This document shows positions 31,591 through 64,000 of a stretch of DNA of 64,000 nucleotides, piece by piece; within the stretch, counting starts at the first letter, position 1, and each line of letters opens with the position of its first letter. The notes under the pieces were generated by a model that saw nothing but the letters and a program-made list of their open reading frames with translations, ran no database searches and was not told the origin of the DNA. The stretch is from a virus. The DNA lies in the IMG/VR virus record IMGVR_UViG_3300032323_000739, positions 1 through 64,000 of that record, one strand, 5' to 3'. A program made the position numbers and the translations under genes.

Positions 31591-31938
31591 ATGGATGAAC
31601 GATTATCCAAAGCATTAGAATTTGCCAATTATTCGGTGACGCTGGCCAATCAACGTCGAGCTCTAAAAGAAAAATATCTAGCAGATGTTATCCACTATCA
31701 TAACGGAGGATGCTTTGCTATTACAAAAGAATTAATTAATTTTGTCAAATTACAAATCGATACAGGTAATGACACTGGTGTTGTTCTCATTGACGACAAC
31801 GATATTCCAGTAGAAATTGCCAATATGGACGAATTTTTTGATACGATTCTTAACAAATATTTTACAGCCAGTAATGAATATTATACTGAGTATCAAAAAC
31901 TGCGTAAAAATCGCACAGTGGAAGGTTTAACACAATGA
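31591..31938 (+). CDS. Hypothetical protein (possible fibre assembly/chaperone-like)
   Basis: 115 aa, strong RBS AGGAGA, no recognisable catalytic motif. Confidence 0.5.
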   Translation: MDERLSKALEFANYSVTLANQRRALKEKYLADVIHYHNGGCFAITKELINFVKLQIDTGNDTGVVLIDDNDIPVEIANMDEFFDTILNKYFTASNEYYTEYQKLRKNRTVEGLTQ

Positions 31939-32816
31939 CCCGTGGCTGTTTAATCTATGCCTTTAACAACGAAGAAATAGATTATATCACTATTGCTCGA
32001 GAAGCCGCACGTCGAGTTAAACTTTACTTAGAGGTGCCCGTTTGCTTGATTACAGATTCTGTGGAACAAGCACAAAAGGTAGATCCCGACAACAAATATT
32101 TTGATACAATTATTGATGTTTGGAAAGACACCCAACTAAAACCTACAGCAGAATTATTAAACACTAGAAATGTTCGTCAATATTCAGACGGCAGTGTTAC
32201 ACAAAAGAAAGCCAATTTTAAAAATAGTCTCCGAACAAAAACTTATGAATTAACACCTTATGATGAAACATTAGTAATAGACAGTGATTACTTTTTAGCC
32301 AATGGTTTGTTAAAAAATTGTTGGGATCAAGAGAAAGATTTTTTAATTTATAAAGAAGGGTATGACATATCTGGATATAGAATCCACCCGGAGTTTGATC
32401 GTGTTAGCGACTATACAGTAGATTTTTATTGGGCTACAGCGTTCTGGTTTAGAAAATCATCAATGACTAAAACTTTTTTTAATCTAGTAGATCACATCCG
32501 TGACAACTGGGATTACTATAAGTTAGTTTATCAATTTGCCAGTCATATGTACCGTAATGATCACGCCTTTAGTATTGCAATTCATATTATGAACGGTTAT
32601 ACAGGCTTGCCTTGGGAAGGAAAAATGCCAGGTCGTATGCTTTATACACTAGACAAAGATGTACTAGTAGATATGGATGATCGAGGATTTAGAGTATTAT
32701 TAGAAAAACAAAACAGACATGGTGAGTATACTTTAACAAAAACTCAGGATGTTAGTATACATCTTATGAATAAGTTTAGCATACACAGAGTTCTCAAGGA
32801 GATTGCTGATGTCTAA
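31935..32816 (+). CDS. GT-A fold glycosyltransferase (GT8-like)
   Basis: RGCLIYA...Y...A; TPYDETLVIDSDY (DxD); RNDHAFSIA. Confidence 0.7.
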   Translation: MTRGCLIYAFNNEEIDYITIAREAARRVKLYLEVPVCLITDSVEQAQKVDPDNKYFDTIIDVWKDTQLKPTAELLNTRNVRQYSDGSVTQKKANFKNSLRTKTYELTPYDETLVIDSDYFLANGLLKNCWDQEKDFLIYKEGYDISGYRIHPEFDRVSDYTVDFYWATAFWFRKSSMTKTFFNLVDHIRDNWDYYKLVYQFASHMYRNDHAFSIAIHIMNGYTGLPWEGKMPGRMLYTLDKDVLVDMDDRGFRVLLEKQNRHGEYTLTKTQDVSIHLMNKFSIHRVLKEIADV

Positions 32817-33657
32817 AGGTTTTATTGTATTAGCACAAAATACAGACACAATAGACTATGTTCGACAGGCTTATGCTCTTGCGTTAAGCATTAAACATAG
32901 TCAGCAGACAATAAACAATATATCTATCATTACTAATGATATTATACCCGAACAATATAAATTTGTGTTTGATCAAATTATTAAAATCCCATGGGGTGAT
33001 TCTAGCGCCAACAGTAGATTTAAAGTAGAAAATCGTTGGAAAATATATCATGCTAGTCCATATGATCAGACCATTGTGCTTGATACTGATATGTTAGTGT
33101 TGGATGATATTTCTAGTTACTGGTCTACCTTTGAAAATTATGAAGTTTATTATACAAGTAAAGTCTTAGATTATCGAAACAAAATTATTTCCAGTAATTA
33201 TTATAGAAAAGCGTTTACTGCTAATAACCTACCAAATTTTTACTCTGGGTTACACTATTTTAAAAAATCTGAGTTTGCCAAAGAATTCTATAGTTGGGTA
33301 GAGTTAATTACAAACAACTGGGAATTATTTTATGGCAAATATGTCAGCGAACATTATCCAGAAAGGCCCAGTATGGATATTAGTGCGGCCTTAGCAGGAA
33401 AAATTATGCAAGTGACAGAAAAGATTACTAATTCTAAATACGACCCTGTAACCTTTACACACATGAAAAGTCGAATACAAGGTTGGGCTGACCCAGGGGA
33501 TAGTTGGATGAATAGTGTTGCTGTATATTTTGATCACGAGTGCCAGTTAAAAATTGGTAATTTTCAACAGCAGGGAGTGTTCCATTACACTGAAAAAGAG
33601 TTTCTTACTGATGTAATAATTAACAAATTGGAGTCAGCATGCCTGGCAATGAATTAA
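32809..33657 (+). CDS. GT-A fold glycosyltransferase (GT8-like), paralog of the previous gene
   Basis: SPYDQTIVLDTDML (DxD). Start moved to ATG 32809 behind the RBS AAGGAGA. Confidence 0.7.
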   Translation: MSKGFIVLAQNTDTIDYVRQAYALALSIKHSQQTINNISIITNDIIPEQYKFVFDQIIKIPWGDSSANSRFKVENRWKIYHASPYDQTIVLDTDMLVLDDISSYWSTFENYEVYYTSKVLDYRNKIISSNYYRKAFTANNLPNFYSGLHYFKKSEFAKEFYSWVELITNNWELFYGKYVSEHYPERPSMDISAALAGKIMQVTEKITNSKYDPVTFTHMKSRIQGWADPGDSWMNSVAVYFDHECQLKIGNFQQQGVFHYTEKEFLTDVIINKLESACLAMN

Positions 33658-34250
33658 CTCAAGAAGAATTAGATGCTATACTAGCACAGTCGGCATGGAA
33701 ACCAGCAGACCCGCTAGTGTATTTTAATCCGGATACCGGAGAACTTCGTATGATTACTGGAGAGCAACAGGGCGATGATCCGTATTTTATACGTGTTAAT
33801 CCTGCTGAGATTGACGATCTTGTAAAAAACAAAACATCCCCTGCAGACTATCGTGTAGTTATGGATTTTAAAACTAATGAATATATTCTACAAAATATTT
33901 TAGATGGAGACATTCGTAGTTTTAATTGGAATGAAGAAGTATATCAACTACCTAAACACGGAGAGGGTAGTATTACATTAGTTCAAAATATTAAAGATAA
34001 AACTTGGACTCTTAAAATAACAGACAACGTTAGAGACTCGCTGTCTAAACAGGCAGTACACGCTAAAAGCAGTCTTGCTTTTTACGCTACTAAGCGGGAT
34101 GATGTTAACGTGTTATATGGGATATTAAAGTTTAGGATGATAGATATTACTACTACAGGTGAATTTACTATAAAAGATAGTTCTGCAGAACAGGAATGCA
34201 GTGTATTTTGCCGTAGAGTATTTGATAGTTATAGGCATGTAGAACAATGA
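33639..34250 (+). CDS. Hypothetical protein
   Basis: 203-aa ORF overlapping both neighbours; RBS GGAG. Confidence 0.55.
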   Translation: MPGNELTQEELDAILAQSAWKPADPLVYFNPDTGELRMITGEQQGDDPYFIRVNPAEIDDLVKNKTSPADYRVVMDFKTNEYILQNILDGDIRSFNWNEEVYQLPKHGEGSITLVQNIKDKTWTLKITDNVRDSLSKQAVHAKSSLAFYATKRDDVNVLYGILKFRMIDITTTGEFTIKDSSAEQECSVFCRRVFDSYRHVEQ

Positions 34251-35143
34251 AAATAAGAATAGCAGAACAAGATATCATTTATCTCAGTTACGATGAACCC
34301 AATGCTGAGAAGAATTATGCAGATTTATTACACAAAGTACCTTGGGCTAAACGTGTACATGGAGTTAAAGGCAGCGATGCCGCACACAAAGCCTGTGCCG
34401 CATTAAGCGACACAGAATATTTTGTCACAGTTGACGGTGACAATGTTATTGATTCTGAATTTATTAACGTAGAAATCGATTTAGATGAATTAGGGCTTGA
34501 TGAAAGTTATGTATTCAGTTGGTGCGGTAAAGTTAACGTTAACGGATTAATGTATGGCAACGGCGGCCTTAAGTTATGGACTCGTAAATTTGTTAACAAC
34601 ATGCGTACACATGAAAATTCTGACCCTGCTGATACTAAAGGTCTAGTAGAATTTTGTTTTGATGACAAATATTATCAATTCAATACTAATTATTCTACTA
34701 GCGTTATTAATGGCAGTGCTTTCCAAGCCTTCCGTGCAGGATTTCGAGAAGGCGTAAAGATGAGTTTAAATCAAGGAGCCAAAGTTAGTAACATTAAAGA
34801 CGTGTGGTGGCAAAATTATCAACGTCTTTTAATCTGGTCTACGGTTGGCAGTGATGTGGAATATGGAGATTGGGCTATATATGGTGCTCGAGAAGGTTGC
34901 TACTTGACTAATTGTACAGACTGGGACTATGCCAATGTTCGTGATTTTGAATACCTTACAGAACAGTGGAAAGAAAAATACAGTAAAATTACTGAGGAAA
35001 TGTTACCATATGAAATTACAGGACTTGGTGTAACACTAAAAGAAGAATTAGGTTTAGAAATAGCAGACCTAGATAAACATGGCAGTAAATTTTTTAGAAC
35101 AGTATATCAAAATACTCCAAGAATAATTGGAAGAAAACTATGA
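34247..35143 (+). CDS. GT-A glycosyltransferase-like protein (DGD motif)
   Basis: DII.LSYDEPNA...GVKG...AH..A......F.TVDGDN; paralog of 45718-46413. Confidence 0.65.
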   Translation: MKIRIAEQDIIYLSYDEPNAEKNYADLLHKVPWAKRVHGVKGSDAAHKACAALSDTEYFVTVDGDNVIDSEFINVEIDLDELGLDESYVFSWCGKVNVNGLMYGNGGLKLWTRKFVNNMRTHENSDPADTKGLVEFCFDDKYYQFNTNYSTSVINGSAFQAFRAGFREGVKMSLNQGAKVSNIKDVWWQNYQRLLIWSTVGSDVEYGDWAIYGAREGCYLTNCTDWDYANVRDFEYLTEQWKEKYSKITEEMLPYEITGLGVTLKEELGLEIADLDKHGSKFFRTVYQNTPRIIGRKL

Positions 35144-36555
35144 TCACTAGCAAGTTAGAATATTGGCCTAAGATTAAAGATCAACTAGATCAAGTAGGAC
35201 CTGGATTTTGTTTGGCAAAATGGAATCAAGTAACAATTCATCTAGCCACAGGTCATACACATAGTTGTCATCATCCTAACACACATAAGATTCCTCTGCA
35301 AGAAATTGCCGCGGACCCTAGTGCATTACATAATACTCTATTCAAGAAACAACAACGCCAACGTATGTTAGACGGTGAACGTCCAGAAGAATGTAGTTAT
35401 TGCTGGAATGTTGAGGATAATGTTAAAGAAGCACATATATTCAGTGACCGTGTACAAAAAAGTGCAGAATCTTGGAGTCAGAATTTTGAAGAAGTGCTGG
35501 CTGCTGGCGCAGAAAATTTTAATCCTACCTATGTTGAAGTTAGTTTTAGTAATGTTTGCAATTTTAAATGTTCGTATTGTTCACCAGAAGTATCTAGCAA
35601 ATGGATGGAGGAGATAGAACAATATGGGGCTTATCCAACTAGCAACAAATTTAATAATATCGAATGGTTAAAAAGCATTGACAAAATGCCTATACCTAAC
35701 AAAGACTATAATCCTTATGTTAATGCGTTTTGGCACTGGTGGCCCGAGTTATATAAGACTCTAAAAGTGTTCCGTATTACTGGCGGCGAACCTTTATTAA
35801 GCAAAGATACGTTTAAAGTTTTAGATCATATCATAGAAAACCCTCGTCCTGAACTTGAACTAATGATTAACAGTAATCTCTGCATACCGGATGAATTGTT
35901 TAATAAGTTTGTAGAAAAGATGAAACGTATTCAAGGCGAAGGCATGATCAAAGACTTTACCTTGTTTACTAGTTGCGAAGCACACGGCGAGCGAGCAGAA
36001 TATATTCGCAACGGTTTAAATTATAACAAATGGTTAGATAATTGTTATACGTACTTGGACAAAGTACCAAATGGTCGTTTAGGTATAATGAGCACCTATA
36101 ATATTTTAAGTGTTACAAGTTACATGCCATTTATGAAAGACTTGTTAACACTAAACAAAACCTTTAATCATTATAAGGATAGAGTACATCCATTAATTTT
36201 TGATATTCCATACTTACGTTATCCAGAACATCTTAGTATGACTATCCTTACACCTGATTATCTTAAACAAGTCGAAGAACAAGTAACGTTTATGTATCAG
36301 AACCGTCAAACAGCAGATTGGCAACCTCTTGCTGGCAACGGTTTTTATGATTGGGAATGTAAAAAGTTAGAACGTGTTTATCATTTGCTAGAAAGCACTT
36401 TCAAAGTTGGCGAGCATCTACAACCAAGCACTGTAAATAAACGCAAAGATTTTGTACGTTTTGTTGACGAGCATGACCGTCGTCGTGGTACAAATTTCTT
36501 ACAAACCTTTCCAGAAATGGAAGAGTTCTACAACCTATGCAAGTCTTTAACATGA
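35140..36555 (+). CDS. Radical SAM protein with N-terminal twitch/SPASM-like Cys cluster
   Basis: CNFKCSYC (CxxxCxxC), TGGEP; N-terminal CLAKW...HSCHH...ECSYCW. Confidence 0.85.
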   Translation: MITSKLEYWPKIKDQLDQVGPGFCLAKWNQVTIHLATGHTHSCHHPNTHKIPLQEIAADPSALHNTLFKKQQRQRMLDGERPEECSYCWNVEDNVKEAHIFSDRVQKSAESWSQNFEEVLAAGAENFNPTYVEVSFSNVCNFKCSYCSPEVSSKWMEEIEQYGAYPTSNKFNNIEWLKSIDKMPIPNKDYNPYVNAFWHWWPELYKTLKVFRITGGEPLLSKDTFKVLDHIIENPRPELELMINSNLCIPDELFNKFVEKMKRIQGEGMIKDFTLFTSCEAHGERAEYIRNGLNYNKWLDNCYTYLDKVPNGRLGIMSTYNILSVTSYMPFMKDLLTLNKTFNHYKDRVHPLIFDIPYLRYPEHLSMTILTPDYLKQVEEQVTFMYQNRQTADWQPLAGNGFYDWECKKLERVYHLLESTFKVGEHLQPSTVNKRKDFVRFVDEHDRRRGTNFLQTFPEMEEFYNLCKSLT

Positions 36556-36983
36556 AATATATTAGTCATAGAGGAAATTTAAAAGGTCCTGAACCTGAAT
36601 TAGAAAATGAGCCAGGGTACATTCAGGACGCTTTAGATGCTGGATTTGATGTAGAAGTTGATGTTTGGTATGTAGATGAAAAATTTATGCTAGGGCATGA
36701 CGCACCTATATATGATGTAACCAAAAACTTTTTATTAGATAGTAGACTTTGGTGTCATGCTAAAACTCCCGAAGCATTAACAGCCATGTTAACAGCCGGA
36801 ATTCATTGCTTTTGGCATGAAAATGATGAAAGAACTTTAACTAGTCAGGGATTTATATGGACATATCCACACAAAAAATTAGTTGATCGTTCAGTAGTTG
36901 TAATTTTAGACAAGGAATTAAATCATGAGTATGTCTCACGAGCAGTTGCAGTCTGCGGTGACTACGTTCAATCCTGGCGCTAA
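36552..36983 (+). CDS. Small glycerophosphodiester phosphodiesterase (GDPD/PLC)-like protein
   Basis: ISHRGN...EN.....A...GFDVEVDVW...LGHD...WCHAK. Start at ATG 36552 (ATGA overlap). Confidence 0.7.
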   Translation: MKYISHRGNLKGPEPELENEPGYIQDALDAGFDVEVDVWYVDEKFMLGHDAPIYDVTKNFLLDSRLWCHAKTPEALTAMLTAGIHCFWHENDERTLTSQGFIWTYPHKKLVDRSVVVILDKELNHEYVSRAVAVCGDYVQSWR

Positions 36984-37734
36984 TAAAATTGCTATCTGTT
37001 TTAGTGGACAAATTCGCACATGGCGTCGATGCATAGACACATGGATTCATCTTTTAGAACATAATGGTTCTAGAGATAACATAGATGTTTTTTGTCATTT
37101 TTGGGATTTTAATACGGTACCAAACTCTGTGCCAGATCATCCTAAAGTATCTGCCAAGGTGGATACTGAAGAAATAAAAGAACTAATAGACATTTTAAAA
37201 CCTAAAAAATATATAATTGATTTTGCGCGAGAGTTCCCACTGTTTGATAAAAATCAAGCAATTACACACGGACCGTTTGTTAGTCAATTTTACGGAATCA
37301 TGAAAGCGGCAAATTTAAAACGTCAGTATGAGATTGAAAATCGCATGATGTATAAAGGTGTAGTACGTGCAAGGTATGACGCATACTATACTCACAATGT
37401 AACTGAGTTTTATAAAAATATTGCTCCTAATACTATGCACGGGTTTCATATGGGATGGAATCCTGATAACTTTAGAGGGCGTATGGGAGATATTTTTTGG
37501 ATTGCAGACAGTGACACTTATGATCTTATAGCAGACTACTATATCAATCTAGGCTACATGAATAAGAAATGGTTCACTGCTGATCAAACAGATGCCACTC
37601 CGGAATGGGTATTTTTTCATTACATTAAAAAGAATAATATCGATATACAAAATAATCATTGGGATATTAAACTAATGAGAGAAAACGCAGAACTTAGTTT
37701 TGCCAAGAAGGAGGGCGGCTTTGAAGTCTGGTAA
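36925..37734 (+). CDS. Putative glycosyltransferase-like protein (IAIC.SG..R family)
   Basis: KIAICFSGQIRT...DVFCHFW...SQFY....AN.K..YE...Y..VVR.R.D; RBS AAGGA; paralog of the next gene. Confidence 0.5.
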   Translation: MSMSHEQLQSAVTTFNPGANKIAICFSGQIRTWRRCIDTWIHLLEHNGSRDNIDVFCHFWDFNTVPNSVPDHPKVSAKVDTEEIKELIDILKPKKYIIDFAREFPLFDKNQAITHGPFVSQFYGIMKAANLKRQYEIENRMMYKGVVRARYDAYYTHNVTEFYKNIAPNTMHGFHMGWNPDNFRGRMGDIFWIADSDTYDLIADYYINLGYMNKKWFTADQTDATPEWVFFHYIKKNNIDIQNNHWDIKLMRENAELSFAKKEGGFEVW

Positions 37735-38455
37735 GATTGCTATCTGTATTAGCGGAATGCTACGAACAGGAATTCAAGCGTATCCTGTGTTTCGTAATTT
37801 TTTTGATTCTCTTGGCGAGTATGATATTTTTTATCATACCTGGAAGTTAGACTCATCAATATCTAATTTGTTAAAAACAACTTACAAACCTACAAGATTT
37901 TTAGAAGAAGATCCGCTTAATAATACTAAAGAAAGTTCGTTTGGTAGTATGTTATACAGTATAATGATGGCCAATGAACTTAAAAAACAATATGAGATTG
38001 AAAATAATTTCAGATATGATCTTGTAATTAAAACAAGGTTTGATCTTGTTTTTCCTAAGACTATTAAATTTCCTGTTGATGAAAATATATGGCCTAGAAC
38101 AATTTATAGTGTAAACGGAAATTGTGGTATAAATCATACTGATTATGAAAATCACGGTATTAGTGATGTAATATTTTGGGGAGATAGCCAAAGTATGGAC
38201 CTGGCAACTAATATTTACAGGCATTATAAGTACACTACCTTAGTTAAAGACATGTATTTGAGGGACGGCTGGAAAATGGATGTAAAAGATTACTATCTAA
38301 GTCCAGGTACTATGATTTATCAACGCACAGTTAAACAAAATATAGCACATGTTAGATTGCCGTCTATTGGAGAAGTTCCGTGGAGGGACGATGTTGCTGA
38401 GTTAGATCCAGTTAAAGATTACGATAAAATAAGAGAGAGATATGCAAAAGGTTAA
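37721..38455 (+). CDS. Putative glycosyltransferase-like protein, paralog of 36925-37734
   Basis: KIAICISGMLRT...DIFYHTW...SMLYS...ANELK..YE....YDLVIKTRFD. Likely TTG start at 37721 after GAAGGAGG. Confidence 0.5.
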   Translation: MKSGKIAICISGMLRTGIQAYPVFRNFFDSLGEYDIFYHTWKLDSSISNLLKTTYKPTRFLEEDPLNNTKESSFGSMLYSIMMANELKKQYEIENNFRYDLVIKTRFDLVFPKTIKFPVDENIWPRTIYSVNGNCGINHTDYENHGISDVIFWGDSQSMDLATNIYRHYKYTTLVKDMYLRDGWKMDVKDYYLSPGTMIYQRTVKQNIAHVRLPSIGEVPWRDDVAELDPVKDYDKIRERYAKG

Positions 38456-39260
38456 GACATTATTAGTAGATGGCGATAGTTGGACATACGGCAGTGAAAT
38501 ACGCGATCCCAAGTTGCCAGAAGAAGTAAAAGATTGGGACCCACCGAATGATGAATATCGATTACCGCGTATTTGGCCAACAAAGTTGGGAGAAATGTTA
38601 GGTGCTGACGAAGTGTTTAACATCAGTTATCCTGCATCTAGCAATGATGGAATAGTGCGAAGAACAGTAGGATGGATTACTCAAGAATATCTAAGCAAAG
38701 GTCGCGATACTAGCGATCTATTTGTAGTCATAGGATTTACTAGTCCAGAACGAAAAGATTTTTATTATCGTGACATTGACGACAAATATAAACACTTTTG
38801 GTACACACTTTGGCCAATGTGGAAACATCGTTATCCACAAGAGGAATTAAACAGATTTGCCGACATTTATGCTTCTTATATGTGGAACCCTGAAGAGTAT
38901 ACACATAGATATCTAAATCAAGTATTCTATTTGCAAACATTGTTTAATCATTACGGCATAAAACATTTATTTTTCCAAGCCTTTTATCAGCGTAATGATA
39001 TGCATATACGTCAGTGGACAGATGATCCATATAACAAACACTACAACGGACAACCAGATCAAATGGTTTGGGACATGATTGATCCTACACGATTTATGCA
39101 TAAGGATGACAAGATTCATAGTTTTCATAACTATATTTTAGATAAAGATACCAGCGAAGGAAAACGAAATAGTATTCTTAACATGCATCCTAGTGAATTA
39201 GGACATACATGGTGGGCCGAACACATTTATGAATACGGCAAAGGAAAAAAATTATGGTAA
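38442..39260 (+). CDS. SGNH/GDSL-fold esterase or acyltransferase-like protein
   Basis: DGDSWTYG block I, SN..I.R, G.T..ER, C-terminal HP...GH..WA. Confidence 0.65.
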   Translation: MQKVKTLLVDGDSWTYGSEIRDPKLPEEVKDWDPPNDEYRLPRIWPTKLGEMLGADEVFNISYPASSNDGIVRRTVGWITQEYLSKGRDTSDLFVVIGFTSPERKDFYYRDIDDKYKHFWYTLWPMWKHRYPQEELNRFADIYASYMWNPEEYTHRYLNQVFYLQTLFNHYGIKHLFFQAFYQRNDMHIRQWTDDPYNKHYNGQPDQMVWDMIDPTRFMHKDDKIHSFHNYILDKDTSEGKRNSILNMHPSELGHTWWAEHIYEYGKGKKLW

Positions 39261-41764: not shown

Positions 41765-41779
41765 AAAATACTTTACAAT
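41751..41779 (+). promoter_or_regulatory. sigma70-type promoter TTGACA-N17-TACAAT for RLP-kinase-cyclase-SDR
   Basis: TTGACA at 41751-41756 (inside the cupin 3' end), TACAAT at 41774-41779, RBS AAAGGA at 41785-41790, ATG at 41796. Confidence 0.75.
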
Positions 41780-41795
41780 AACAGAAAGGAAAAGT

Positions 41796-43028: not shown

Positions 43029-43029
43029 T

Positions 43030-56376: not shown

Positions 56377-56604
56377 TTAATCTTTTTCGGTTACTATAAT
56401 TGCTACTCGATCGGCGGCCCATACTAGCCGACCGTAGCAGGCGATGTTCCATTTAGTTTCACCGTGTTCTTGCGTACATTCTGTAAACGTTTCTCCAAAG
56501 ATTCTAACATCCGACGCAAAATGCTCTTGGCCGTTTTCAAACACTCGCCACACTAATTTAGAACCGTTGTGTTTGGTATTGAATCGGACGTGATACTTGT
56601 TCAT
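56377..56604 (-). CDS. Small hypothetical protein
   Basis: 75 aa, translationally coupled to both neighbours. Confidence 0.55.
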   Translation of the reverse strand: MNKYHVRFNTKHNGSKLVWRVFENGQEHFASDVRIFGETFTECTQEHGETKWNIACYGRLVWAADRVAIIVTEKD

Positions 56605-57437
56605 TTAAGTCCCATCTCTTTTCTTATCTTAGTGGCACTTATTGAATGTATAGCATCATCAAAAGTTTCTTGTTCAATTCGATAGCCTACATCTCTACCA
56701 TAGGTAATGTTTACAATGTTAGGCACAACTTGTATTTCGTATTGTCCCTGATACAGAGGATCTAGATCTCTGCGTATGTAACTTTTGACTTGTTCTATAG
56801 CAAACGGGTTTGACCCTTGCCAACCTTGACAATCACGTATTTGTATCACAACTTGCCCTGTTTTGGCAATGGCACGTTCAAATAACGCACGATGTCCAGC
56901 ATGCCACGGCTGCCATCGTCCTAACATTTGTACTGTTTCTTTTTGCCAGTCGAACGTAGGTCTACGACGATTGCTAAGGATATGTTCTCCGATAAATTCA
57001 GACCACTTCTCTGCATTCTGTTCTGTAATGCGGAAGTCGTAGACATCTGGTGCTACAAACATTTTATTTGTATCTTCATATCGACCAGCATCTATAGTGT
57101 CTACCCAGATAGTCCAGTCTGCTTTAAAATTATGTCGCATTTCGGGCAAAGGTGCTACAAAATCAACAATGACAAAATCTGCAGAACTTCGATCTGCTAA
57201 TTCCCTCATTCTATGACTTTGACGTATACGTCCTTCTTGACTAAAGTCCCAGTCATTATACTTCTTGCGGACATCATCGGCATTAAACCATTCTACAGTA
57301 GCGTAACTCTGGTGAGCCATTTCTCGATCACTGTGAAACATACCGCTATGGTTTTCTAACCATTTTTTTAATTCTTGAGCAAGCATGGTTTTGCCTGCGC
57401 CGGGTAACCCCATTATTAATATACGCTTTGCTGTCAT
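56601..57437 (-). CDS. Adenylylsulfate-kinase-like domain fused to an HxGH nucleotidyltransferase domain
   Basis: GLPGAGKT P-loop, NAD.VR....DFS.EGR..Q..R; C-terminal LGRWQPWHAGH...ISATKIR. Confidence 0.8.
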   Translation of the reverse strand: MTAKRILIMGLPGAGKTMLAQELKKWLENHSGMFHSDREMAHQSYATVEWFNADDVRKKYNDWDFSQEGRIRQSHRMRELADRSSADFVIVDFVAPLPEMRHNFKADWTIWVDTIDAGRYEDTNKMFVAPDVYDFRITEQNAEKWSEFIGEHILSNRRRPTFDWQKETVQMLGRWQPWHAGHRALFERAIAKTGQVVIQIRDCQGWQGSNPFAIEQVKSYIRRDLDPLYQGQYEIQVVPNIVNITYGRDVGYRIEQETFDDAIHSISATKIRKEMGLK

Positions 57438-58027
57438 TGAAACACCTTTTGTAAACTTATGTCTGGATAATCTTTATAACTCCATTTCTGCGGAGGCATA
57501 TCCTTTACTTCTTTAAACTTTTTAAGACCTAGTTCTGCAGTTTCAGGAGTCATATAATAATGATAACCTAACTGTTCTATAATTTGTTCTGGCCACGGTC
57601 TTTCTCCAAATCTTCCATCGTAACTCATTTCTTTTAATTTTTTAAAGTCAGATAAATTGTCTAACAGAATCATTCCGCCTCTGCCAAGTTTAAGATGTTT
57701 TTTAAATTGAAAACTTAAACACATTAAAGTACCTGGAATGTAACTGCCTTGCTTCCATAGCACTGCGGCGTCAATTATATTACTGTTGCCGATGTAATAA
57801 TAATCTTGCCAGTCTTCGTTTCTAAATTTCCACTCTAAACCTAATTTCATAAAAGTCATTGGTATAGAAAGATACGTTTGCCTTGGGCAACTAACCTGAT
57901 TTGTTTCAGTTAATCTTAAACTTAGTTCTACTGCATGTGTACAGCAGTCAACACTGACAGCATATTTGCTGCCAAAAAAGTCAGCAATAGTATTTTCAAA
58001 TTCTGATATAGTATTCCAGTCAGCCAT
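57434..58027 (-). CDS. DegT/DnrJ/EryC1/StrS PLP aminotransferase (short, about 197 aa)
   Basis: FE..IA...G.KYAV.VD.CT.A, IDAA, SFQFKKHL..GRGG, GY.Y.M....A.LG. Start at ATG 58027 (TAATG). Confidence 0.8.
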   Translation of the reverse strand: MADWNTISEFENTIADFFGSKYAVSVDCCTHAVELSLRLTETNQVSCPRQTYLSIPMTFMKLGLEWKFRNEDWQDYYYIGNSNIIDAAVLWKQGSYIPGTLMCLSFQFKKHLKLGRGGMILLDNLSDFKKLKEMSYDGRFGERPWPEQIIEQLGYHYYMTPETAELGLKKFKEVKDMPPQKWSYKDYPDISLQKVFQ

Positions 58028-58617
58028 TATAATCTCGGATCCCAAGTAGGAAATTCGCACTCCCATTTAGGGAATTTTTTCAGTTGTTCAAAGTATATAT
58101 CTAAATTTAGGCCCCACACTGACTGATTCCATCCCCTGTAAAATACATCTTTGGCTTTGTAAAATGTGCCTTGCTCTACATGTTTAGGAAACCAGATATT
58201 ATGACTAATTCTACTAGTACCTACACTGTTAGCATTACTAGTGCCGTAGAATTTTTTATCTGTTCCGGCCCAGGCAATAGCCGCAGGCATAAAGAATTGA
58301 CTGGCTACACACTGATGTTTAAACACAAATCCTCGAACATTGTGCATAGGCTTATGACTGCGATCAGTAAAGCACACAGTCCTTGCTAGTAATCGATAAC
58401 TGCCGGGACCCATAACATCATCAAAACTATGGCAACAAACTCCTCCGATAATTTCTCCGTTGTATTCTAATAACCAGCCGGCCCACTCTCGTTCGTTTTT
58501 AAAACAATCAAACATAGTTTTTTGACTGATATTATTTTCAAAACCTCTGCGAGCACACTCGGCATAAAATTCTGTTAAATCTAAATCTTCAGTAAATGGT
58601 ATTAATCGATATGTCAT
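58027..58617 (-). CDS. Hypothetical protein, possible GNAT-fold acyltransferase
   Basis: W.L...GEIIG....H.......YRL..R pattern; start at ATG 58617 (ATGA overlap). Confidence 0.4.
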   Translation of the reverse strand: MTYRLIPFTEDLDLTEFYAECARRGFENNISQKTMFDCFKNEREWAGWLLEYNGEIIGGVCCHSFDDVMGPGSYRLLARTVCFTDRSHKPMHNVRGFVFKHQCVASQFFMPAAIAWAGTDKKFYGTSNANSVGTSRISHNIWFPKHVEQGTFYKAKDVFYRGWNQSVWGLNLDIYFEQLKKFPKWECEFPTWDPRL

Positions 58618-59918
58618 GTGCTTTCCTGCCAGTGTGAATTGCGTGACAAACAACGATTTGTAATTTTATTTCTAGCATCTGATATTTCAGTTTTACTATG
58701 TAAAAAATTGCTAATCATAAAATAATTTAAAATAGTGCTAGTGTGTATAAATGCATTATCTAACTTTGAAACTATTAAATCAATTTTTGATAAAAGATCA
58801 ATATTATGAAACTCTACTTCTAAATTTTTAAAATGGTCCCAGTTGTTTAATATTTTTTCATTTAATCCTTGATACTTTTGAGACTCGCACTGAGCACTAT
58901 CTAAGTGCGGTTCAATACCGATATTTCTTTCTTTTGCCCAGGAGTTAGCGAACTCTTGATAATTTTTTCCGTCCCATGTTTGATATAAAGATTTTTTAAA
59001 TTCTATATTATTAGGATTTAAATCATAAAAAATTATTTTCTTAGCATTACTGGTAAGTGCCATGCTTTCACCTAAAAGTCCGTTAGCCGGACTGATTACT
59101 ACATCTGCTTGTATGTGCGGAGCATGACAGTCCCAGTGCCACACATTTAAATAATTAAATTCTAAAGCCTTTTTAATAATAGCAATAATCATTATTTGAC
59201 TTTCATCAAGATCATCTGTAATTGTTAAAGATTTAAGTGCTGGTTCAAATAATTCTGGACGTATTTTAGGATAAAAATGGCCACGTGCCGGCAAGCGATA
59301 TCTATCTTTATCAAACCCTAAGTCGTCAACTAAATCTTCTATAGAAATAAATTTTAAATTATTTTCTGGATATCTCCAGTCTTCGTCAAAGTTAACAACT
59401 GTATAGCCTTGGTTTAGTGCCTCCTCCATAACGGCTGCTCCAAAGTCCATGACTCTTTCTGTTTTTTCTTCTGCCAAATACACACTAAGTGGAGCATGTC
59501 CGCAGTTCATGTCGCCGTGCCCTCGAACAAATCTGGATCCATAATCTTCGTAAGAAGAAAAATTTAATCCTTTAGGAAATGCGCGAGTATTAATAATAAA
59601 ACATTGATCGTGTAAGTGGGGAGTGGTGTCCTCGGGGTACCAAATAATATGCCCCATAACTCCGATATTATCAGTTAAACTATGTATTTTATTCCACAAG
59701 TGATCTCTGTTAATAATCACATCGCCTGCAGTTTCCACAAACAGCCAGTCGGCCTGATCTAAATAATCATTAATTTGTTCATAACTATTCACTGTAACTA
59801 CTGGATAGTTGCCTTCGCTAAGTTGATACTGTCCTGCCTCTGTAATCTGTAACATCTTAGCATCTAGCCAAGGATGATTAGTAGAGATCTGTACTGTAAT
59901 AAAAATAACCCGATTCAT
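58614..59918 (-). CDS. Hypothetical protein (possible GT-A-like N-terminal and methyltransferase-like C-terminal domains)
   Basis: 434-aa ORF coupled to neighbours. LH.QCF.IN and IIFYD.N....F are suggestive only. Confidence 0.4.
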   Translation of the reverse strand: MNRVIFITVQISTNHPWLDAKMLQITEAGQYQLSEGNYPVVTVNSYEQINDYLDQADWLFVETAGDVIINRDHLWNKIHSLTDNIGVMGHIIWYPEDTTPHLHDQCFIINTRAFPKGLNFSSYEDYGSRFVRGHGDMNCGHAPLSVYLAEEKTERVMDFGAAVMEEALNQGYTVVNFDEDWRYPENNLKFISIEDLVDDLGFDKDRYRLPARGHFYPKIRPELFEPALKSLTITDDLDESQIMIIAIIKKALEFNYLNVWHWDCHAPHIQADVVISPANGLLGESMALTSNAKKIIFYDLNPNNIEFKKSLYQTWDGKNYQEFANSWAKERNIGIEPHLDSAQCESQKYQGLNEKILNNWDHFKNLEVEFHNIDLLSKIDLIVSKLDNAFIHTSTILNYFMISNFLHSKTEISDARNKITNRCLSRNSHWQEST

Positions 59919-60558
59919 CTTGTTTTTCCAATGCTTGTTTCATCATGTCTTTCCATTCTGGCGTACTGTCATGATGATGTACTATTAAATGATAACGATC
60001 TTCCGTGCTACGATTTTCTATACTATGTTCATAACTGAGATTCATAGCATAGGCATCTCCAGGTTTAAAATCAACCTTAGATCCGTCTGTCCACTGCCAA
60101 ACACAATTAGGATGATTAGTGAGGGCAATATTTACAGCATCCGGTATAGAGTAAGGACTGTCCCGATGTTGACTAATAAACCCACCTGCTTTTAACAACA
60201 TAAATCTTACTCTGCCTAATTGTTGACTAGGAAAGACATTTTTTAACCAATTTACTGTTACTGGGCATTGCTCTGCAATTTCAGTCCATGTAAAATCTTT
60301 AGCAGCCTCGCGTGGACTAGCGTATCCGTAGGCATCCCAACTCATAGGACGATCTAACCCTAATCCGTATATAGGTAAACTAAACCAATCGTGGTGGTCG
60401 TATCCGTCATCTTTTCTATATCTAATAAATTGATCTTTTAACGACTGTGCTTCGGCAGCCATGGCTTCGTGTGGGATTTCCAAATCTAATTTTAAACATT
60501 TGGCAGAAGTGTATAGATATTCTCTTGCACCTTCTGTATATTCTTTACTAAAATTCAT
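59878..60558 (-). CDS. Aspartyl/asparaginyl beta-hydroxylase-like Fe/2OG oxygenase
   Basis: CP.T..WL, RVRFM.L..GG.I..HRD, NIAL, G.......EHS..N.S..DRYHLI. Confidence 0.8.
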   Translation of the reverse strand: MNFSKEYTEGAREYLYTSAKCLKLDLEIPHEAMAAEAQSLKDQFIRYRKDDGYDHHDWFSLPIYGLGLDRPMSWDAYGYASPREAAKDFTWTEIAEQCPVTVNWLKNVFPSQQLGRVRFMLLKAGGFISQHRDSPYSIPDAVNIALTNHPNCVWQWTDGSKVDFKPGDAYAMNLSYEHSIENRSTEDRYHLIVHHHDSTPEWKDMMKQALEKQDESGYFYYSTDLY

Positions 60559-60562
60559 AATG

Positions 60563-60603
60563 TACTTATTTTATTTTAGCACCATGGAAATAAAAAGTAA
60601 ATA
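60563..60603. promoter_or_regulatory. Divergent late-promoter-like motifs: AATAAGTA (minus, 60570-60563) and TAAATA (plus, 60598-60603)
   Basis: They lie 4 nt and 6 nt before their start codons respectively, with no SD sequence. Confidence 0.55.
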
Positions 60604-60609
60604 CCCAGT

Positions 60610-61695
60610 ATGTTTAAATTTGACGAACTTCAAACCATTCATTTAGAAATAACCAATAACTGTCAAGCCAGTTGCCCTATGTGTGCTAGAAACTATCACG
60701 GCGGTCAGCCCAATCCATTGTTAAAAATTAATAATTGGACACTAAAAGATTTCCAAGATATTTTTACAGACGAAGTGATCGCACAAGTTAAAGGCATCTA
60801 CTTTTGTGGAAACTTTGGAGATCCGTTATTAAACAACGATTTTTTAGACATGATAAAATGGATAGTACCAAAAAGTCCTAATCTTGTTATTAATGTACAT
60901 ACCAACGGTGGTGCTCGTAAAACTGAATGGTGGGAAGAATTAGCTCGTAGCCTACCACAGAATCACATGATAAATTTTGGCATCGATGGATTGGAGGATA
61001 CACATCATTTATATCGAGTCGGAACAACCTATGAAAATGTTATACGTAATGCTAAAGCATTTATAGATGCAGGCGGTCGTGCTGAGTGGGTTTTCTTAAA
61101 ATTTAAACATAACGAACATCAGGAAGAAGAAGCGCGTCGACGTGCTAAAGATTTAGGCTTTGAAATTTTTACATTAAAAAATTCCAGTAGATTTTTAGGA
61201 GAACCTAGATATAGAGTTATTGACAAGGAAGGTAATATTACACATTATATTGAACCTCCTAATGATAACAAGATGCATTTTATTAGCAAAGAAATGATAG
61301 ATAACTATCGAGAAACTATCATGCCTCTTGAAATTAGTTGTAAGGTACAACGTGATAGAGAAATTTATATAGATGCTTTTAAGATGGTCATGCCCTGCTG
61401 TTGGTTAGCCAGCGCACCTTATACACAATATGATTATGATAATGTTAATGCGCATATACGATCTGAAATTAAACGACAGTATCACGACTTAGTTGATGCA
61501 TTAGGCGGACCACAAGCATTAGATGCTGTTAACGTTGGTATAAAAGCAGTTATAGATTCTAAACCATGGCAGACAGTGTGGGAAGAATATTGGACAAATA
61601 AGAAAATGATCATGTGTGCTCGTATATGTGGTCAAACACCTACGATTTCAAAACCAACAGATCAATTTTTAGAAAGAAAGAAATTAAACTCTTAA
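60610..61695 (+). CDS. Radical SAM protein with SPASM/twitch-like C-terminus
   Basis: CQASCPMC, GNFGDP, TNG; C-terminal C...PCCW...C..IC. Confidence 0.85.
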   Translation: MFKFDELQTIHLEITNNCQASCPMCARNYHGGQPNPLLKINNWTLKDFQDIFTDEVIAQVKGIYFCGNFGDPLLNNDFLDMIKWIVPKSPNLVINVHTNGGARKTEWWEELARSLPQNHMINFGIDGLEDTHHLYRVGTTYENVIRNAKAFIDAGGRAEWVFLKFKHNEHQEEEARRRAKDLGFEIFTLKNSSRFLGEPRYRVIDKEGNITHYIEPPNDNKMHFISKEMIDNYRETIMPLEISCKVQRDREIYIDAFKMVMPCCWLASAPYTQYDYDNVNAHIRSEIKRQYHDLVDALGGPQALDAVNVGIKAVIDSKPWQTVWEEYWTNKKMIMCARICGQTPTISKPTDQFLERKKLNS

Positions 61696-62355
61696 AATTT
61701 CGTAGTGCATTCCTGTTTGAGAAATTAAATTTTTAAAATTTTCTAAAACAGTTTCGTCTTTGTAAGAAATCATTATTTCTCTGTCGTTGATCCAACGAAA
61801 GCCAGTAATATCGCCTTGCTTTATAGCATAATTTATAAATGTACTCATGTTCACATTTATAATGTGTTTAAAATCAAAATCTCCACCTAACATTTTTATA
61901 TGAACTGGGTTTTCTTTAATGTCTGGTAAAGGAACACGAATATTTAAATGAATTCTATCTCGACTACCAAAGTTAACTGCTACATGCCTAGGCCCGGTAT
62001 CCATTAGCCAAACTTCACCGTTGACAGGAAGATGATACATTTTATTTTCATCTAAGTCGATGAGATAGCAATACGGATTAGTAGTAATCGCTAAGTGTAA
62101 CCGATCATCCGGGTCGCTGTGCGCCATGTAACATTCTTCCGGACGAAGTCTCATTAATCTGGCTTCTCCTACGTTATCCAAATTGGCTAATAGATCTCCT
62201 AACGGAGTTCCAACGAACTCGGGCTTTGTGACATACGGACCGTTAAACACAGTTCCTCTGGTTTCGTTAAGGGCTAATCTTTTATCAAATTCCAAAGACA
62301 GAACTTGATCAATAATAGATTGGATAGGAAATTTTTTGTTAGTCTGGTGTAGCAT
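61684..62355 (-). CDS. Aspartyl/asparaginyl beta-hydroxylase-like Fe/2OG oxygenase with C-terminal extension
   Basis: ARLM.L.....Y.AHSD...RLH.AI.TN, DT...H.AVNFG...RIHL. Confidence 0.7.
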   Translation of the reverse strand: MLHQTNKKFPIQSIIDQVLSLEFDKRLALNETRGTVFNGPYVTKPEFVGTPLGDLLANLDNVGEARLMRLRPEECYMAHSDPDDRLHLAITTNPYCYLIDLDENKMYHLPVNGEVWLMDTGPRHVAVNFGSRDRIHLNIRVPLPDIKENPVHIKMLGGDFDFKHIINVNMSTFINYAIKQGDITGFRWINDREIMISYKDETVLENFKNLISQTGMHYEILRV

Positions 62356-62367
62356 TTAAATACTTAT
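62356..62367. promoter_or_regulatory. 12-bp intergenic gap carrying back-to-back late-promoter motifs
   Basis: Plus strand TAAATA (62357-62362) then 5 nt then ATG 62368. Minus strand ATAAGTA (62367-62361) then 5 nt then ATG 62355. Confidence 0.6.
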
Positions 62368-63168
62368 ATGATTAGAGACACTCTAAAGGCACTTTATGAA
62401 GCAACGCCTTACACTAGCATATTACACGATATTAACGGAGTGGCCGTTCCTTTGGCACCCGATTGGCGTAATATTGGTATTAGCGTAAGTGGTGGTGCCG
62501 ACAGTGCTCTATTAGCATTTTTAATTTCTAAATTAATTAGTGAAAATAACTTTGAATCTAAAGTACACATAATTAGTAATGTGCGTATGTGGAAGTTACG
62601 CCCGTGGCAAAAATACAATAGTTTAGATGTTTTTAGATGGCTACAACAACGCTTTCCAAGCATTGAATATATTAGACATGAAAACTTTATTCCACCAGAC
62701 TTTGAGTGGGGATCTAAAGGTCCAACAATTATAGATGAATACGGTGAACTAAAAAGTGGCGACACTATCGAAATTCGAGCTCATGCAGAATATATAGCAC
62801 ACACAGAAAACCTTGATGCTTATTTTAATGCAGTAACTCACAATCCTCATGAGCCGTTAAATGGCGCAATGCCGACTAGAGACATTGCACCAGTACTAGA
62901 AAATTTAACTAAAATGATAACAGTACACATGGGTCGAGTTAGTTGTCATCCTTTTCGATTTGTAGAAAAAGATTGGATATATCAACAATACAAACATTTT
63001 AATATATTAGATTTGTATTATATAACACGCAGTTGTGAAGGTGATACTAATGTGTATCCGGAAGTGTTTAATGGATTAAACTATGAAACTTATACACCAG
63101 GGCAATATGTTCCTACTTGTGAACAATGTTTTTGGTGTCTAGAACGTAGTTGGGCGGAAAAGCAATAA
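62368..63168 (+). CDS. PP-loop ATP pyrophosphatase (QueC/adenine-nucleotide alpha-hydrolase-like)
   Basis: ISVSGGADSALL PP-loop; PF....K; TRSCE...C..CFWC.ER Zn-site-like C-terminus. Confidence 0.7.
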   Translation: MIRDTLKALYEATPYTSILHDINGVAVPLAPDWRNIGISVSGGADSALLAFLISKLISENNFESKVHIISNVRMWKLRPWQKYNSLDVFRWLQQRFPSIEYIRHENFIPPDFEWGSKGPTIIDEYGELKSGDTIEIRAHAEYIAHTENLDAYFNAVTHNPHEPLNGAMPTRDIAPVLENLTKMITVHMGRVSCHPFRFVEKDWIYQQYKHFNILDLYYITRSCEGDTNVYPEVFNGLNYETYTPGQYVPTCEQCFWCLERSWAEKQ

Positions 63169-63500
63169 TGGACATATACCACGTTTGGGCTGACAAAGCA
63201 GGGGACATTAGTGACCTCGATTGGGTTAATAATATGCGTTCTTTTTTAGATCATCTTGTTAGCGAAGGCAAGATGGTAAGTTATAGAATTACTAGATGTA
63301 AGATGGGTTTCCGTAGCATGGATATTCCTGAGTGGCATATTATGATGGAATTTAATAATATGGCACAGTTAGAAACAGCATTTCAACGTGTGGCTCCCTT
63401 AGAAGGGGAGTTAGAAGATAAACATAAAAGTTTTAATCAATTTGTGGCAGGAAACATACAGCATGCCTATTACAGAGATTGGCCAGATGGACAAAATTAA
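63168..63500 (+). CDS. Small conserved protein (dimeric alpha/beta barrel-like, DUF6614-like)
   Basis: Y..W.....SD..W......FL..L..EG....YRITRCK.GF...EWHIMMEF..MAQL..AF; TAATG coupling. Confidence 0.5.
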   Translation: MDIYHVWADKAGDISDLDWVNNMRSFLDHLVSEGKMVSYRITRCKMGFRSMDIPEWHIMMEFNNMAQLETAFQRVAPLEGELEDKHKSFNQFVAGNIQHAYYRDWPDGQN

Positions 63501-64000
63501 ATTAAATAGTTGGGACGAATTGCAACCACTTGAAGTAGTGGCTGTGGGCAGTGTGTATGATCCTAGTTTTTTTGACGGTGTAAAAAATTCACGCATATCT
63601 TCGGTGCTAAAGAAAATTATGCACGAAACTATAGAAGATATCGAATACTTCAAAACACAGATGAAAAGTCATGGTATACAAGTACTGCAAGCCACTCCTA
63701 AAGAGTTGGGTTACAAAGACAGCATACTTGATTATGTTGATGTTAACGGTAAGATGGGATTTGCCAGTGCTCGTCCTAACCTAGTTAAGAAAAACATGAT
63801 TCCAACTAGTCCTCTGCAGATTCGAGATGACAGTATAGTGATGGGCAATAAACTGTTGATTACTGATAGAACATTTGAAGTAGAAGGATATGTTAATAAG
63901 TTTATTGAATGGTTTGGCGAAGATCAAATAGATCTTAGCATATACAATGGTCGTATGGAGTTTCAACGCAGTGAATATAATTTACGTGCCGCCGCCAAGG
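63487..64000 (+). CDS. Second amidinotransferase-family protein (5' part; runs off window end)
   Basis: Manual translation from ATG 63487: MDKIKLNSWDELQPLEVVAVG...ETIED......GIQVLQ...PLQIRDDSIVMGNKL, homologous to the N-terminus of 54667-55659. Confidence 0.7.
   Translation, partial: MDKIKLNSWDELQPLEVVAVGSVYDPSFFDGVKNSRISSVLKKIMHETIEDIEYFKTQMKSHGIQVLQATPKELGYKDSILDYVDVNGKMGFASARPNLVKKNMIPTSPLQIRDDSIVMGNKLLITDRTFEVEGYVNKFIEWFGEDQIDLSIYNGRMEFQRSEYNLRAAAK

Follow-up and report, generated by a model that had tools for sequence, protein, structure and literature searches.

What does a long block of sugar-modifying genes, placed directly behind the tail-fibre genes of a phage, synthesize, and on which acceptor does it deposit the product? 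This question is raised by positions 1 to 64,000 of the IMG/VR virus record IMGVR_UViG_3300032323_000739 (hereafter the window), which form the beginning of one viral contig, 89,019 bp long. CheckV estimates this contig to be 24% complete, implying a genome of ~370 kb with ~76% of it off the contig. A preliminary description of the window had recognized an island of more than 32 kb and about 40 genes after the tail-fibre genes, and this outline is correct: 41 open reading frames (ORFs) belong to the window part, and the island runs on to position 78,586. In its entirety it occupies 31,591–78,586 of the contig (~47 kb) and contains 56 tightly packed, often overlapping ORFs. We regard it as a hypervariable island next to fibre genes, of the host-recognition-cluster type, whose entirely soluble pathway most likely makes a sugar chain with many decorations. 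For the acceptor of this chain, which is the most conjectural part of the system, we tentatively place the proteins of the virion itself first among four readings.

Both junctions of the island recur in related phages. A scan of IMG/VR with an alignment of one of its glycosyltransferase (GT) families, the GT-B proteins described below, retrieved at least 580 viral stretches, and 79 loci were examined. The left junction with fibre genes was found in at least seven of them, with homologues of o010–o013 flanking the same island in L047, L052, L057, L059, L062, L064, and L065; the proteins o010–o012 share a common N-terminal domain (paralogy by BLASTP). The right junction, with a pair of genes for thymidylate synthase (thyA) and dihydrofolate reductase (DHFR), also recurs; on this contig the pair is followed by replication-type genes. 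The preliminary description had listed no thymidylate synthase homologs, and one does sit just past the island end, beyond the window: o070 matches bacterial enzymes with 316 bits and keeps the DxHxYxNH motif, so that it is an ordinary ThyA and not a hydroxymethylase. Since the first island gene is directly preceded by its own perfect TTGACA-17-TATAAT promoter-like site, the sole 12/12 match in 20 kb, the island looks transcriptionally separate from the fibre operon. A T4-type late promoter was considered and rejected, as TATAAATA has zero occurrences in the window (12 ± 3.5 expected) despite the presence of a gp55-like late sigma factor gene (376–1203, minus strand).

The solubility of the pathway extends well past the window. 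Even at a relaxed threshold, no ORF of the contig shows more than one hydrophobic segment, with the exception of the giant structural protein o008 and a soluble protein resembling 2-epi-5-epi-valiolone synthase (EEVS). Likewise, among the 1,449 ORFs of the 79 related loci, none longer than 199 aa has three or more such segments. The families of initiating phosphoglycosyltransferases (Bac_transf and the WecA-type PF00953) and GT20 gave no match. The absence of an exporter or multi-pass membrane protein, already noted for the window, holds for the whole 89-kb contig and, as far as sizeable proteins are concerned, for the 79 loci, and cytoplasmic assembly without any phage-encoded export or membrane step, as the preliminary description had proposed, is well supported. 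Because no export step is encoded, the product would meet its acceptor inside the infected cell, in the cytoplasm. The sole N-terminal hydrophobic segment of the island belongs to o056 (contig 65123–65605, minus strand), which weakly resembles arginyl-tRNA-protein transferases in their C-terminal domain.

The sugar chain would be assembled by the GTs. At E-values of 0.01 or better, Pfam returned zero GT families among the island ORFs of the window, so every GT-like assignment required other evidence, and sequence or profile searches of the PDB were uninformative for the GT-B family, the GT-A family, and the radical S-adenosylmethionine (SAM) proteins of the N_Twi_rSAM family and o033. The GT-B family has four copies (o040, o041, o067, and o069; 31–42% mutual identity by BLASTP) and 772 unnamed homologues in environmental data, an identical GT-B protein being encoded on a 166-kb contig; tblastn found no match in cultured phages. 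The AlphaFold2 model of this family, built from a 44-sequence alignment, reaches a pLDDT (predicted local distance difference test) of 88.5 and adopts a GT-B fold, all its leading Foldseek matches being GT-B transferases. VIA-align compares it best with the T4 beta-glucosyltransferase (Z 11.2), only ~1–2 Z above exostosin (10.1), Gtf3/GtfC (9.8), and a GT10 fucosyltransferase (9.5); the T4 alpha-glucosyltransferase scores 8.8, and the Pfam family T4-Gluco-transf had no match on the contig. The family also has a structural homologue in Mimivirus LCMiAC02 (E 7.6e-11). For the pair o018 and o032, the model (pLDDT 89.8) combines an N-terminal GT-A domain with a DGD motif and a helical C-terminal domain (Z 10–10.6), and that of o018 resembles A64R and TarP. 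The preliminary count of about eight GT-like genes in four pairs is thus confirmed, at the level of predicted folds, for the GT-B pair o040/o041 (four copies in the whole island) and the GT-A pair (two copies). The GT8-like assignment of o015 and o016 is weak, their family profile reaching glycogenin (GT8) across the DxD motif at E 4e-4, and the pair o021/o022 could not be placed in a GT family, yielding only sub-threshold DUF7796 matches and one “capsular polysaccharide biosynthesis” language-model cluster.

A second component, not in the preliminary gene list, is a block for an activated sugar and a C7 cyclitol (o026–o031, Table 1). The protein o030, a sedoheptulose-7-phosphate cyclase, matches the EEVS ValA (4p53) with 262 bits, ahead of desmethyl-4-deoxygadusol synthase (DDGS, 5tpr; 220 bits) and of dehydroquinate synthases (146 bits or less). 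In the alignment it carries VDFGH and NHRNG, to be compared with VDFGH and KHRDG in ValA and with IAYGH and TRDG in DDGS. By these similarities o030 is predicted to be of the EEVS type. The neighboring RuBisCO-like protein o028 (PF00016, 149 bits) has its best matches among form III RuBisCO and RuBisCO-like proteins (~1e-43), and the motifs KPKTG and FIKEDE are invariant across 17 of its homologues. Synteny of genes o025–o035 extends to six further viral contigs, two or more of which also hold, further along, the loci L006 and L004; amino acid identities range from 60 to 97%, and o028 is the most conserved member. None of the 79 related loci, each covering 10 kb on either side of the GT-B gene, contains the EEVS block. 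In cultured phage records, EEVS has only distant matches of the dehydroquinate-synthase type (≤32% identity), two of them in records with Salmonella as organism, and a literature search found no publication linking phage with EEVS; this cyclitol block has not been reported in phages.

Cellular homologues of the RuBisCO-like protein, with 62–78% identity, occur in a complete SAR11 chromosome, Crocinitomicaceae, Verrucomicrobiae, Planctomycetes, bacteria of the Candidate Phyla Radiation (CPR), and Woesearchaeota. At 19 cellular loci (L091–L109), the gene is located among GT2 genes, adjoined by a nucleotidyltransferase of the NTP-transferase type in 17, by a homologue of o020 in 12, and by a cupin gene in 10, and neither EEVS nor the kinase adjoins it. 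These neighborhoods indicate that o028 belongs to a mobile cassette (NTP-transferase, cupin, RuBisCO-like protein, and o020) tied to glycan clusters, to which the phage has joined a C7-cyclitol branch.

Around these two components the island carries a set of putative tailoring enzymes, for which the preliminary census of the window was largely right. It had counted four radical SAM enzymes (o019, o033, o036, and o050) and all four have the CxxxCxxC motif, as have all ten of the complete island. The score of o036 (28.3 bits) is just under the Pfam cut-off of 29.5, that of o050 with Radical_SAM is 42.8 bits, and the 170-bit cut-off of the N_Twi_rSAM model NF033640 is exceeded by o019 and, further along, by o058 (380.8 bits), o060 (314.4), and o068 (297.1). 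The four SGNH-like proteins (o023, o024, o025, and o034) were also recovered by their GDS and C-terminal His motifs, three of them additionally through DUF6071 (68 bits for o023, 32 bits for o025) or weak GDSL matches and o024 by its motif, without a family match. The same applies to the four oxygenases dependent on iron and 2-oxoglutarate (Fe/2OG), out of ~7 proteins of this type in the whole island: o038 matches TIGR04324, o049 and o051 match PF05118 (51 and 30.5 bits, respectively), and the family of the small protein o039 has an HxD..H motif invariant in a 35-sequence alignment, with an AtsK/TauD match at E 1e-4. Several of the Fe/2OG assignments are based on motifs and sub-threshold matches. 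The families 2OG-FeII_Oxy_3 and 2OG-FeII_Oxy_5 had no match on the contig and therefore do not place the small Fe/2OG proteins. In o038 (50442–51566) the TIGR04324 domain is joined to a LIC12192-family domain (TIGR04323), both “sporadic carbohydrate cluster” families. This protein, 84–91% conserved in relatives, has H-Q-G at the expected position of the HxD iron ligands, a halogenase-like substitution.

The aminotransferase and the epimerase of that census were equally recognized (o046, DegT, 57 bits; o037, Pfam Epimerase, 129 bits), and o042 is a clear amidinotransferase that aligns with StrB1 (1bwd) over its full length (residues 4–327 versus 7–339), including the catalytic cysteine in GGGFHC. 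The second amidinotransferase listed there, o054 (63442–64656), is divergent, with a GGWHC motif and sub-threshold matches only. Motifs and sub-threshold matches are likewise the basis for the putative sulfotransferase o043 (Sulfotransfer_2, E 0.02), methyltransferase o035, and PP-loop protein o052. Two genes from o043, o045 (56601–57437, minus strand) contains a P-loop domain resembling adenosine 5′-phosphosulfate kinase (APS_kinase, 27 bits) followed by a short HxGH nucleotidyltransferase-like domain; a sulfate donor, or a nucleotide-activated donor of another kind, might come from this protein. Two other interpretations of this region were discarded. The aminotransferase gene is not one half of a split DegT gene, being equally short in 46 loci (median length of the counterparts, 196 aa) and having a GNAT-like neighbor, o047. 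The island is not a cluster for a ribosomally synthesized and post-translationally modified peptide either, since it is gene-dense, has no precursor-like small ORF but the 75-aa o044, and carries its twitch/SPASM radical SAM enzymes among sugar genes.

Conservation among relatives separates a core from exchangeable modules. In the 79 loci the recurring genes encode the GT-B protein (79 loci), the small Fe/2OG protein (57–67), the amidinotransferase (64), the N_Twi_rSAM enzyme (51–55), the short DegT protein (48), and the GT-A protein (41); o032 and o033 are 68–72% conserved in related loci. The small Fe/2OG gene usually ends exactly at the GT-B start and is fused to it in ten loci (for example L015:9389–11170), and the GT-B domain is also found fused to UDP-glucose/GDP-mannose dehydrogenase and methyltransferase domains, which links this family to sugar chemistry. 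Relatives carry extra B12 radical SAM enzymes and a TobZ/NodU-type carbamoyltransferase. Near relatives differ by whole modules, with o036–o046 missing from L084 and o036, o040, o041, and o043–o045 missing from L088 and L089. Eight related contigs have island proteins of 1,455–2,313 aa with ~65-aa repeats (FDFSWHPDP..PYIYxFG) that end in an o032-like GT-A domain (among them L015:13516–19845, L066:12768–19709, L040:13472–19462, L037:13529–19219, L045:14268–18815, L043:12044–16411, and L070:14458–20028); of the four proteins scanned with Pfam, none gave a significant match in the repeat part, and the present contig has no such protein.

From this gene content we infer the following pathway. Sedoheptulose 7-phosphate would be converted by the EEVS-type cyclase, the kinase, the short-chain dehydrogenase, and the NTP-transferase into an activated C7 cyclitol, and the cassette of NTP-transferase, cupin, RuBisCO-like protein, and o020 may provide a second building block. 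The short DegT enzyme and the StrB1-type amidinotransferase would convert keto into amino and then guanidino groups. Eight to ten GTs (four GT-B, two GT-A, two GT8-like, and possibly two more) would then join the units, and the product could be edited by the ten radical SAM enzymes, the ~7 Fe/2OG oxygenases, the four SGNH proteins, the methyltransferase, and the sulfotransferase. If the virion is the acceptor, its fibres or other surface proteins would be hydroxylated and subsequently glycosylated before assembly.

Several observations make virion proteins our preferred, if still tentative, acceptor: the fixed place of the island behind the tail-fibre genes in relatives, its fully soluble design, the hydroxylase–GT fusions, the two proteins of the Asp/Asn beta-hydroxylase family, and the Mimivirus structural homologue of the GT-B family. 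Giant viruses glycosylate their own capsids and fibrils, and hydroxylation followed by glycosylation is also the logic of collagen modification, which the hydroxylase–GT fusions fit. Moreover, purified virions of cyanophage S-SCSM2R contained homologues of two island enzymes, the amidinotransferase-like o054 and a hydroxylase (PMC12801897). Known virus-encoded systems for virion glycosylation, namely those of chlorovirus (A64R), of mimivirus fibrils, and of the mycobacteriophages for which O-glycans on capsid and tail tube are attributed to Freeman et al. 2023 as cited in PMC12619734, similarly consist of soluble GTs and sugar-nucleotide enzymes without export genes, with a gene content that varies by lineage. 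They differ from the present island, known here from genes alone, by having far fewer radical SAM and Fe/2OG enzymes, and no recognizable acceptor tract was found here.

Other evidence weighs against a virion acceptor. No ORF of the contig has a run of five or more G-X-Y triplets, and in the giant protein o008, the sole ORF scanned for Ser/Thr-rich stretches, Ser+Thr remain below 35% in every 60-aa window; the other structural proteins show nothing unusual in their total Ser/Thr content. The contig, which holds only ~24% of the genome, lacks the capsid and tail-tube genes. The island is served by its own perfect sigma-70-type promoter, without read-through from the fibre operon. DNA-modifying phage GTs have the same nearest structural neighbors as those described here, T4 beta-glucosyltransferase and PBCV-1 A64R/TarP (bioRxiv 10.1101/2023.12.21.572611), and the literature interprets such islands as remodelling the host O-antigen (PMC7029224). 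The placement of the product on virion or fibre proteins in the preliminary description is therefore consistent with the fibre-adjacent position, the fusions, and the S-SCSM2R virion homologues, all of them circumstantial, and its analogy with giant viruses has gained the Mimivirus homologue of the GT-B family while lacking an acceptor tract on the contig. Its claim of novelty for an autonomous phage protein-glycosylation system leaves out of account that islands of this class have already been described as host recognition clusters (PMC7029224). An extended version, namely a self-contained system that hydroxylates and then glycosylates virion or fibre proteins with a long guanidino- and C7-cyclitol-containing glycan of phage-specific composition that takes part in host recognition, and whose RuBisCO-like cassette makes a hitherto unknown activated sugar that also occurs in surface glycans of SAR11 and of further streamlined bacteria from aquatic habitats, is rather unlikely to be right in all its parts.

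The next reading in our ranking, less probable than virion proteins and yet a serious candidate, is the host envelope: the phage enzymes might extend or decorate lipid-linked precursors of O-antigen, capsule, or teichoic-like polymers at the inner face of the membrane, and an initiating transferase and an exporter of the host would finish the work. The altered surface could block superinfection or stop progeny from adsorbing to debris. Known O-antigen conversion by phages relies on membrane proteins (GtrABC, Oac), which counts against such a role here. This is, nonetheless, the published interpretation of the host recognition clusters, or hyperplastic regions, of pelagi- and cyanomyophages, hypervariable segments of 34–45 kb with fibres, GT8 and lipopolysaccharide (LPS)-type genes, and radical SAM cassettes, regarded by their authors as modifying the host O-chain (Zaragoza-Solas et al. 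2020, PMC7029224), with GT8 as the commonest GT family; homologous cyanophage genes have also been called “cell-wall” genes (PMC12801897). In both cases a large, non-syntenic island is tied to tail-fibre genes and combines GTs, with GT8 prominent, LPS-like sugar genes (here the epimerase and the NTP-transferase), and radical SAM enzymes (ten here), with modules, including radical SAM cassettes, that come and go between near relatives. The RuBisCO-like cassette, the TIGR04324/TIGR04323 fusion, and the GT8-like proteins all have cellular relatives in glycan clusters, the sigma-70-type promoter suggests expression before the late genes, and transferases acting on lipid-linked intermediates require no membrane span. 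By contrast, neither the contig nor the 79 related islands encode an initiating phosphoglycosyltransferase, a flippase, a polymerase, or a multi-pass membrane protein, and a host exporter would have to accept a chain of odd sugars made by about ten transferases. The likeness to host recognition clusters also has its limits. The structural genes here are nearest to those of the Atu_ph07/SCTP-2/PA5oct jumbo group and not to those of pelagi- or cyanomyophages; the published clusters lie between VrlC and gp14 (neither of which was searched here), whereas the present island lies between fibre genes and thyA-DHFR; and PMC7029224 reports no EEVS/RuBisCO-like block.

A free aminocyclitol or pseudo-oligosaccharide, a soluble metabolite similar to aminoglycosides or validamycin and either freed at lysis or active inside the infected cell, appears improbable as the end product. 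It would agree with the closest relatives of two key enzymes, ValA for the cyclase and StrB1 of streptomycin synthesis for the amidinotransferase, and the actinomycete C7-cyclitol and streptidine pathways (ValA/AcbC EEVS; StsC, inosamine kinase, StrB1) share further with the island a DegT-type aminotransferase, an APH-type kinase, a short-chain dehydrogenase, and a nucleotidyltransferase, mirroring the sequence of aminotransfer, phosphorylation, and amidination. The B12 radical SAM enzymes and carbamoyltransferase of relatives would fit as well, and a lytic phage requires no export genes. To our knowledge, aminoglycoside and C7N pathways use far fewer than 8–10 GTs and four SGNH proteins. The island also differs from the actinomycete pathways in its phage setting with ~ten GTs, in the absence of pseudoglycosyltransferases of GT20 or other known type, and in having a RuBisCO-like protein and a cupin inside the block. 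In addition, the EEVS block is limited to near relatives (0/79 loci) whereas the core of amidinotransferase, DegT protein, and GTs is present in most of the 79, and a free metabolite leaves the fixed fibre-adjacent place unexplained. In cyanophage S-SCSM2R the shared genes (ORF301–310 and ORF266–269) are interleaved with GTs and are interpreted by the authors as “antibiotic synthesis genes” or cell-wall genes (PMC12801897). Amino acid identities are 58% between o042 and ORF309, 52% between o046 and ORF305, 31% between o054 and ORF266, and 29% between o043 and an annotated “sulfotransferase”; a small Fe/2OG protein homologous to o039 and a radical SAM enzyme are present too. The S-SCSM2R cassette differs in being ~7 kb long and far from the fibre genes, and neither the o040-type GT-B nor EEVS had a tblastn match in this phage, the RuBisCO-like protein not having been searched in the phage collection.

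The least probable of the four readings, and very unlikely in our view, is DNA hypermodification, in which a dioxygenase would hydroxylate a base and the GT-B and GT-A enzymes add sugars, as in T4, RB69, and TET-dependent phage clusters. Both folds have counterparts there: T4 beta- and alpha-glucosyltransferase are among the matches of the GT-B model, and the GT-A protein resembles A64R/TarP as do proven DNA glycosyltransferases, which are likewise accompanied by kinase and nucleotidyltransferase sets in DNA heptosylation (bioRxiv 10.1101/2023.12.21.572611). The small Fe/2OG protein adjoining or fused with GT-B in relatives recalls the pairs of dioxygenase and GT, the island abuts thyA, and the arabinosyl-5hoC of RB69 and DLP3 and poly-arabinosylated cytosine illustrate that a DNA glycan may depend on a complete sugar pathway (PMC13326640). 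The DNA of the contig weighs against this reading. Across positions 1–89019, AGCT is nearly purged (27 sites versus ~212 expected), GTGCAC is absent, GCTAGC is rare, and the median observed/expected ratio of six-base palindromes is 0.81, which points to long-standing restriction pressure by hosts with AluI-type and other systems. Because of this avoidance, the DNA appears to be exposed to restriction and a global bulky modification is disfavoured; a sequence-specific one is still compatible. Tet_JBP (PF12851), T4-Gluco-transf, and the C5 DNA methylase family (PF00145) found no match on the contig, i.e. in ~24% of the genome (PF12851 and PF00145 were searched there with E-values up to 10), nor was any base-activating enzyme found on it. 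The thyA gene is canonical and followed by that for DHFR, and known DNA glycans in the literature carry 1–3 sugars, the present cluster being ~ten times larger than those of DNA-hypermodifying phages. The probability left over by these four acceptors belongs to mixed or other targets. Since AGCT is depleted as strongly inside the island (11 sites versus 92 expected) as in the structural part (10 versus 85), the island has long been resident in the phage lineage, and its recent acquisition from bacteria was rejected.

This class of island is already known descriptively from aquatic phages; what distinguishes the present one is its size, the first EEVS block in a phage, and the context that it provides for a RuBisCO-like clade. 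Such islands make up 10–15% of some very abundant aquatic phage genomes and recur in hundreds of contigs. Should virion proteins be the acceptor, tailed phages would, like giant viruses, carry out an elaborate glycosylation of their own, which would affect host range and the interactions of the particle with its surroundings. The conserved EEVS block would be the first C7-cyclitol pathway of a phage, and the four-gene RuBisCO-like cassette, shared with SAR11, Bacteroidota, Verrucomicrobia, Planctomycetes, CPR bacteria, and archaea, gives a genomic context to an uncharacterised clade of RuBisCO-like proteins.

Table 1. Features of the island and its left flank. NTP, nucleoside triphosphate; NDP, nucleoside diphosphate; APH, aminoglycoside phosphotransferase; APS, adenosine 5′-phosphosulfate.
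Feature	Position	Strand	Evidence
Tail-fibre genes o010–o013, left flank of the island	24812–31525	+	PHROG tail fibre and collar matches
Perfect TTGACA-17-TATAAT promoter-like site, then inverted repeat and T run, directly before the first island gene	31534–31590	+	
Conserved left end: o014 (uncharacterized), GT8-like pair o015/o016, o017 (uncharacterized), GT-A o018	31591–35143	+	Syntenic in 10–41 related loci
N_Twi_rSAM radical SAM o019 (N-terminal twitch domain)	35140–36555	+	NF033640 344.6 bits, CNFKCSYC motif
o020, 148 aa, resembling the N-terminal half of glycerophosphodiester phosphodiesterase	36537–36983	+	HRG...E.D motif
Paralogue pair o021/o022, candidate GT-like	36925–38455	+	27% mutual identity (BLASTP)
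SGNH-like o023, o024, o025	38442–40710	+	GDS and C-terminal His motifs
Activated-sugar/C7-cyclitol block: NTP-transferase o026, cupin o027, RuBisCO-like o028, APH/fructosamine-type kinase o029, EEVS-like o030, short-chain dehydrogenase o031	40707–45718	+	Pfam
GT-A o032, radical SAM o033, SGNH-like o034, methyltransferase-like o035, radical SAM o036	45709–49468	+	
NDP-sugar epimerase/dehydratase o037, Fe/2OG–LIC12192 fusion o038, small Fe/2OG o039	49529–52072	+	
GT-B paralogues o040, o041	52059–54670	-	BLASTP paralogy, AlphaFold2 model
StrB1-type amidinotransferase o042	54667–55659	-	1bwd E 8e-58
Sulfotransferase-like o043, small o044 (75 aa), APS-kinase-like/HxGH o045	55663–57437	-	
Short DegT-type aminotransferase o046, GNAT-like o047 (sub-threshold), o048 (uncharacterized)	57434–59918	-	
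Asp/Asn beta-hydroxylase-family Fe/2OG o049 (-) and o051 (-) flanking radical SAM o050 (+)	59878–62355		
PP-loop-like o052 (SGGADS), DUF6614 protein o053, start of o054	62368–64000	+	Weak ATP_bind_3; DUF6614 86 bits
GT-B paralogues o067, o069	74649–78586 of the contig, beyond the window		

The remainder of the window informs about the phage that carries the island. Its first 31,525 positions encode the late sigma factor, baseplate hub and wedge proteins, a protein of 4,472 aa, and four tail-fibre-like proteins. The largest of these is o008, a single ORF (10753–24171) placed between the baseplate wedge and fibre genes. Rfam at its gathering threshold gave no match in the window, including for the wcaG motif that is annotated beside a cyanophage island. 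Megablast queries of 20 kb from the island and 24 kb from the structural part matched no cultured phage at the DNA level. The baseplate wedge protein is 35–39% identical in amino acids to those of jumbo myoviruses of the Atu_ph07, SCTP-2, PA5oct, and Rak2 type, and near-identical DNA is present in freshwater metagenomes from an independent study.

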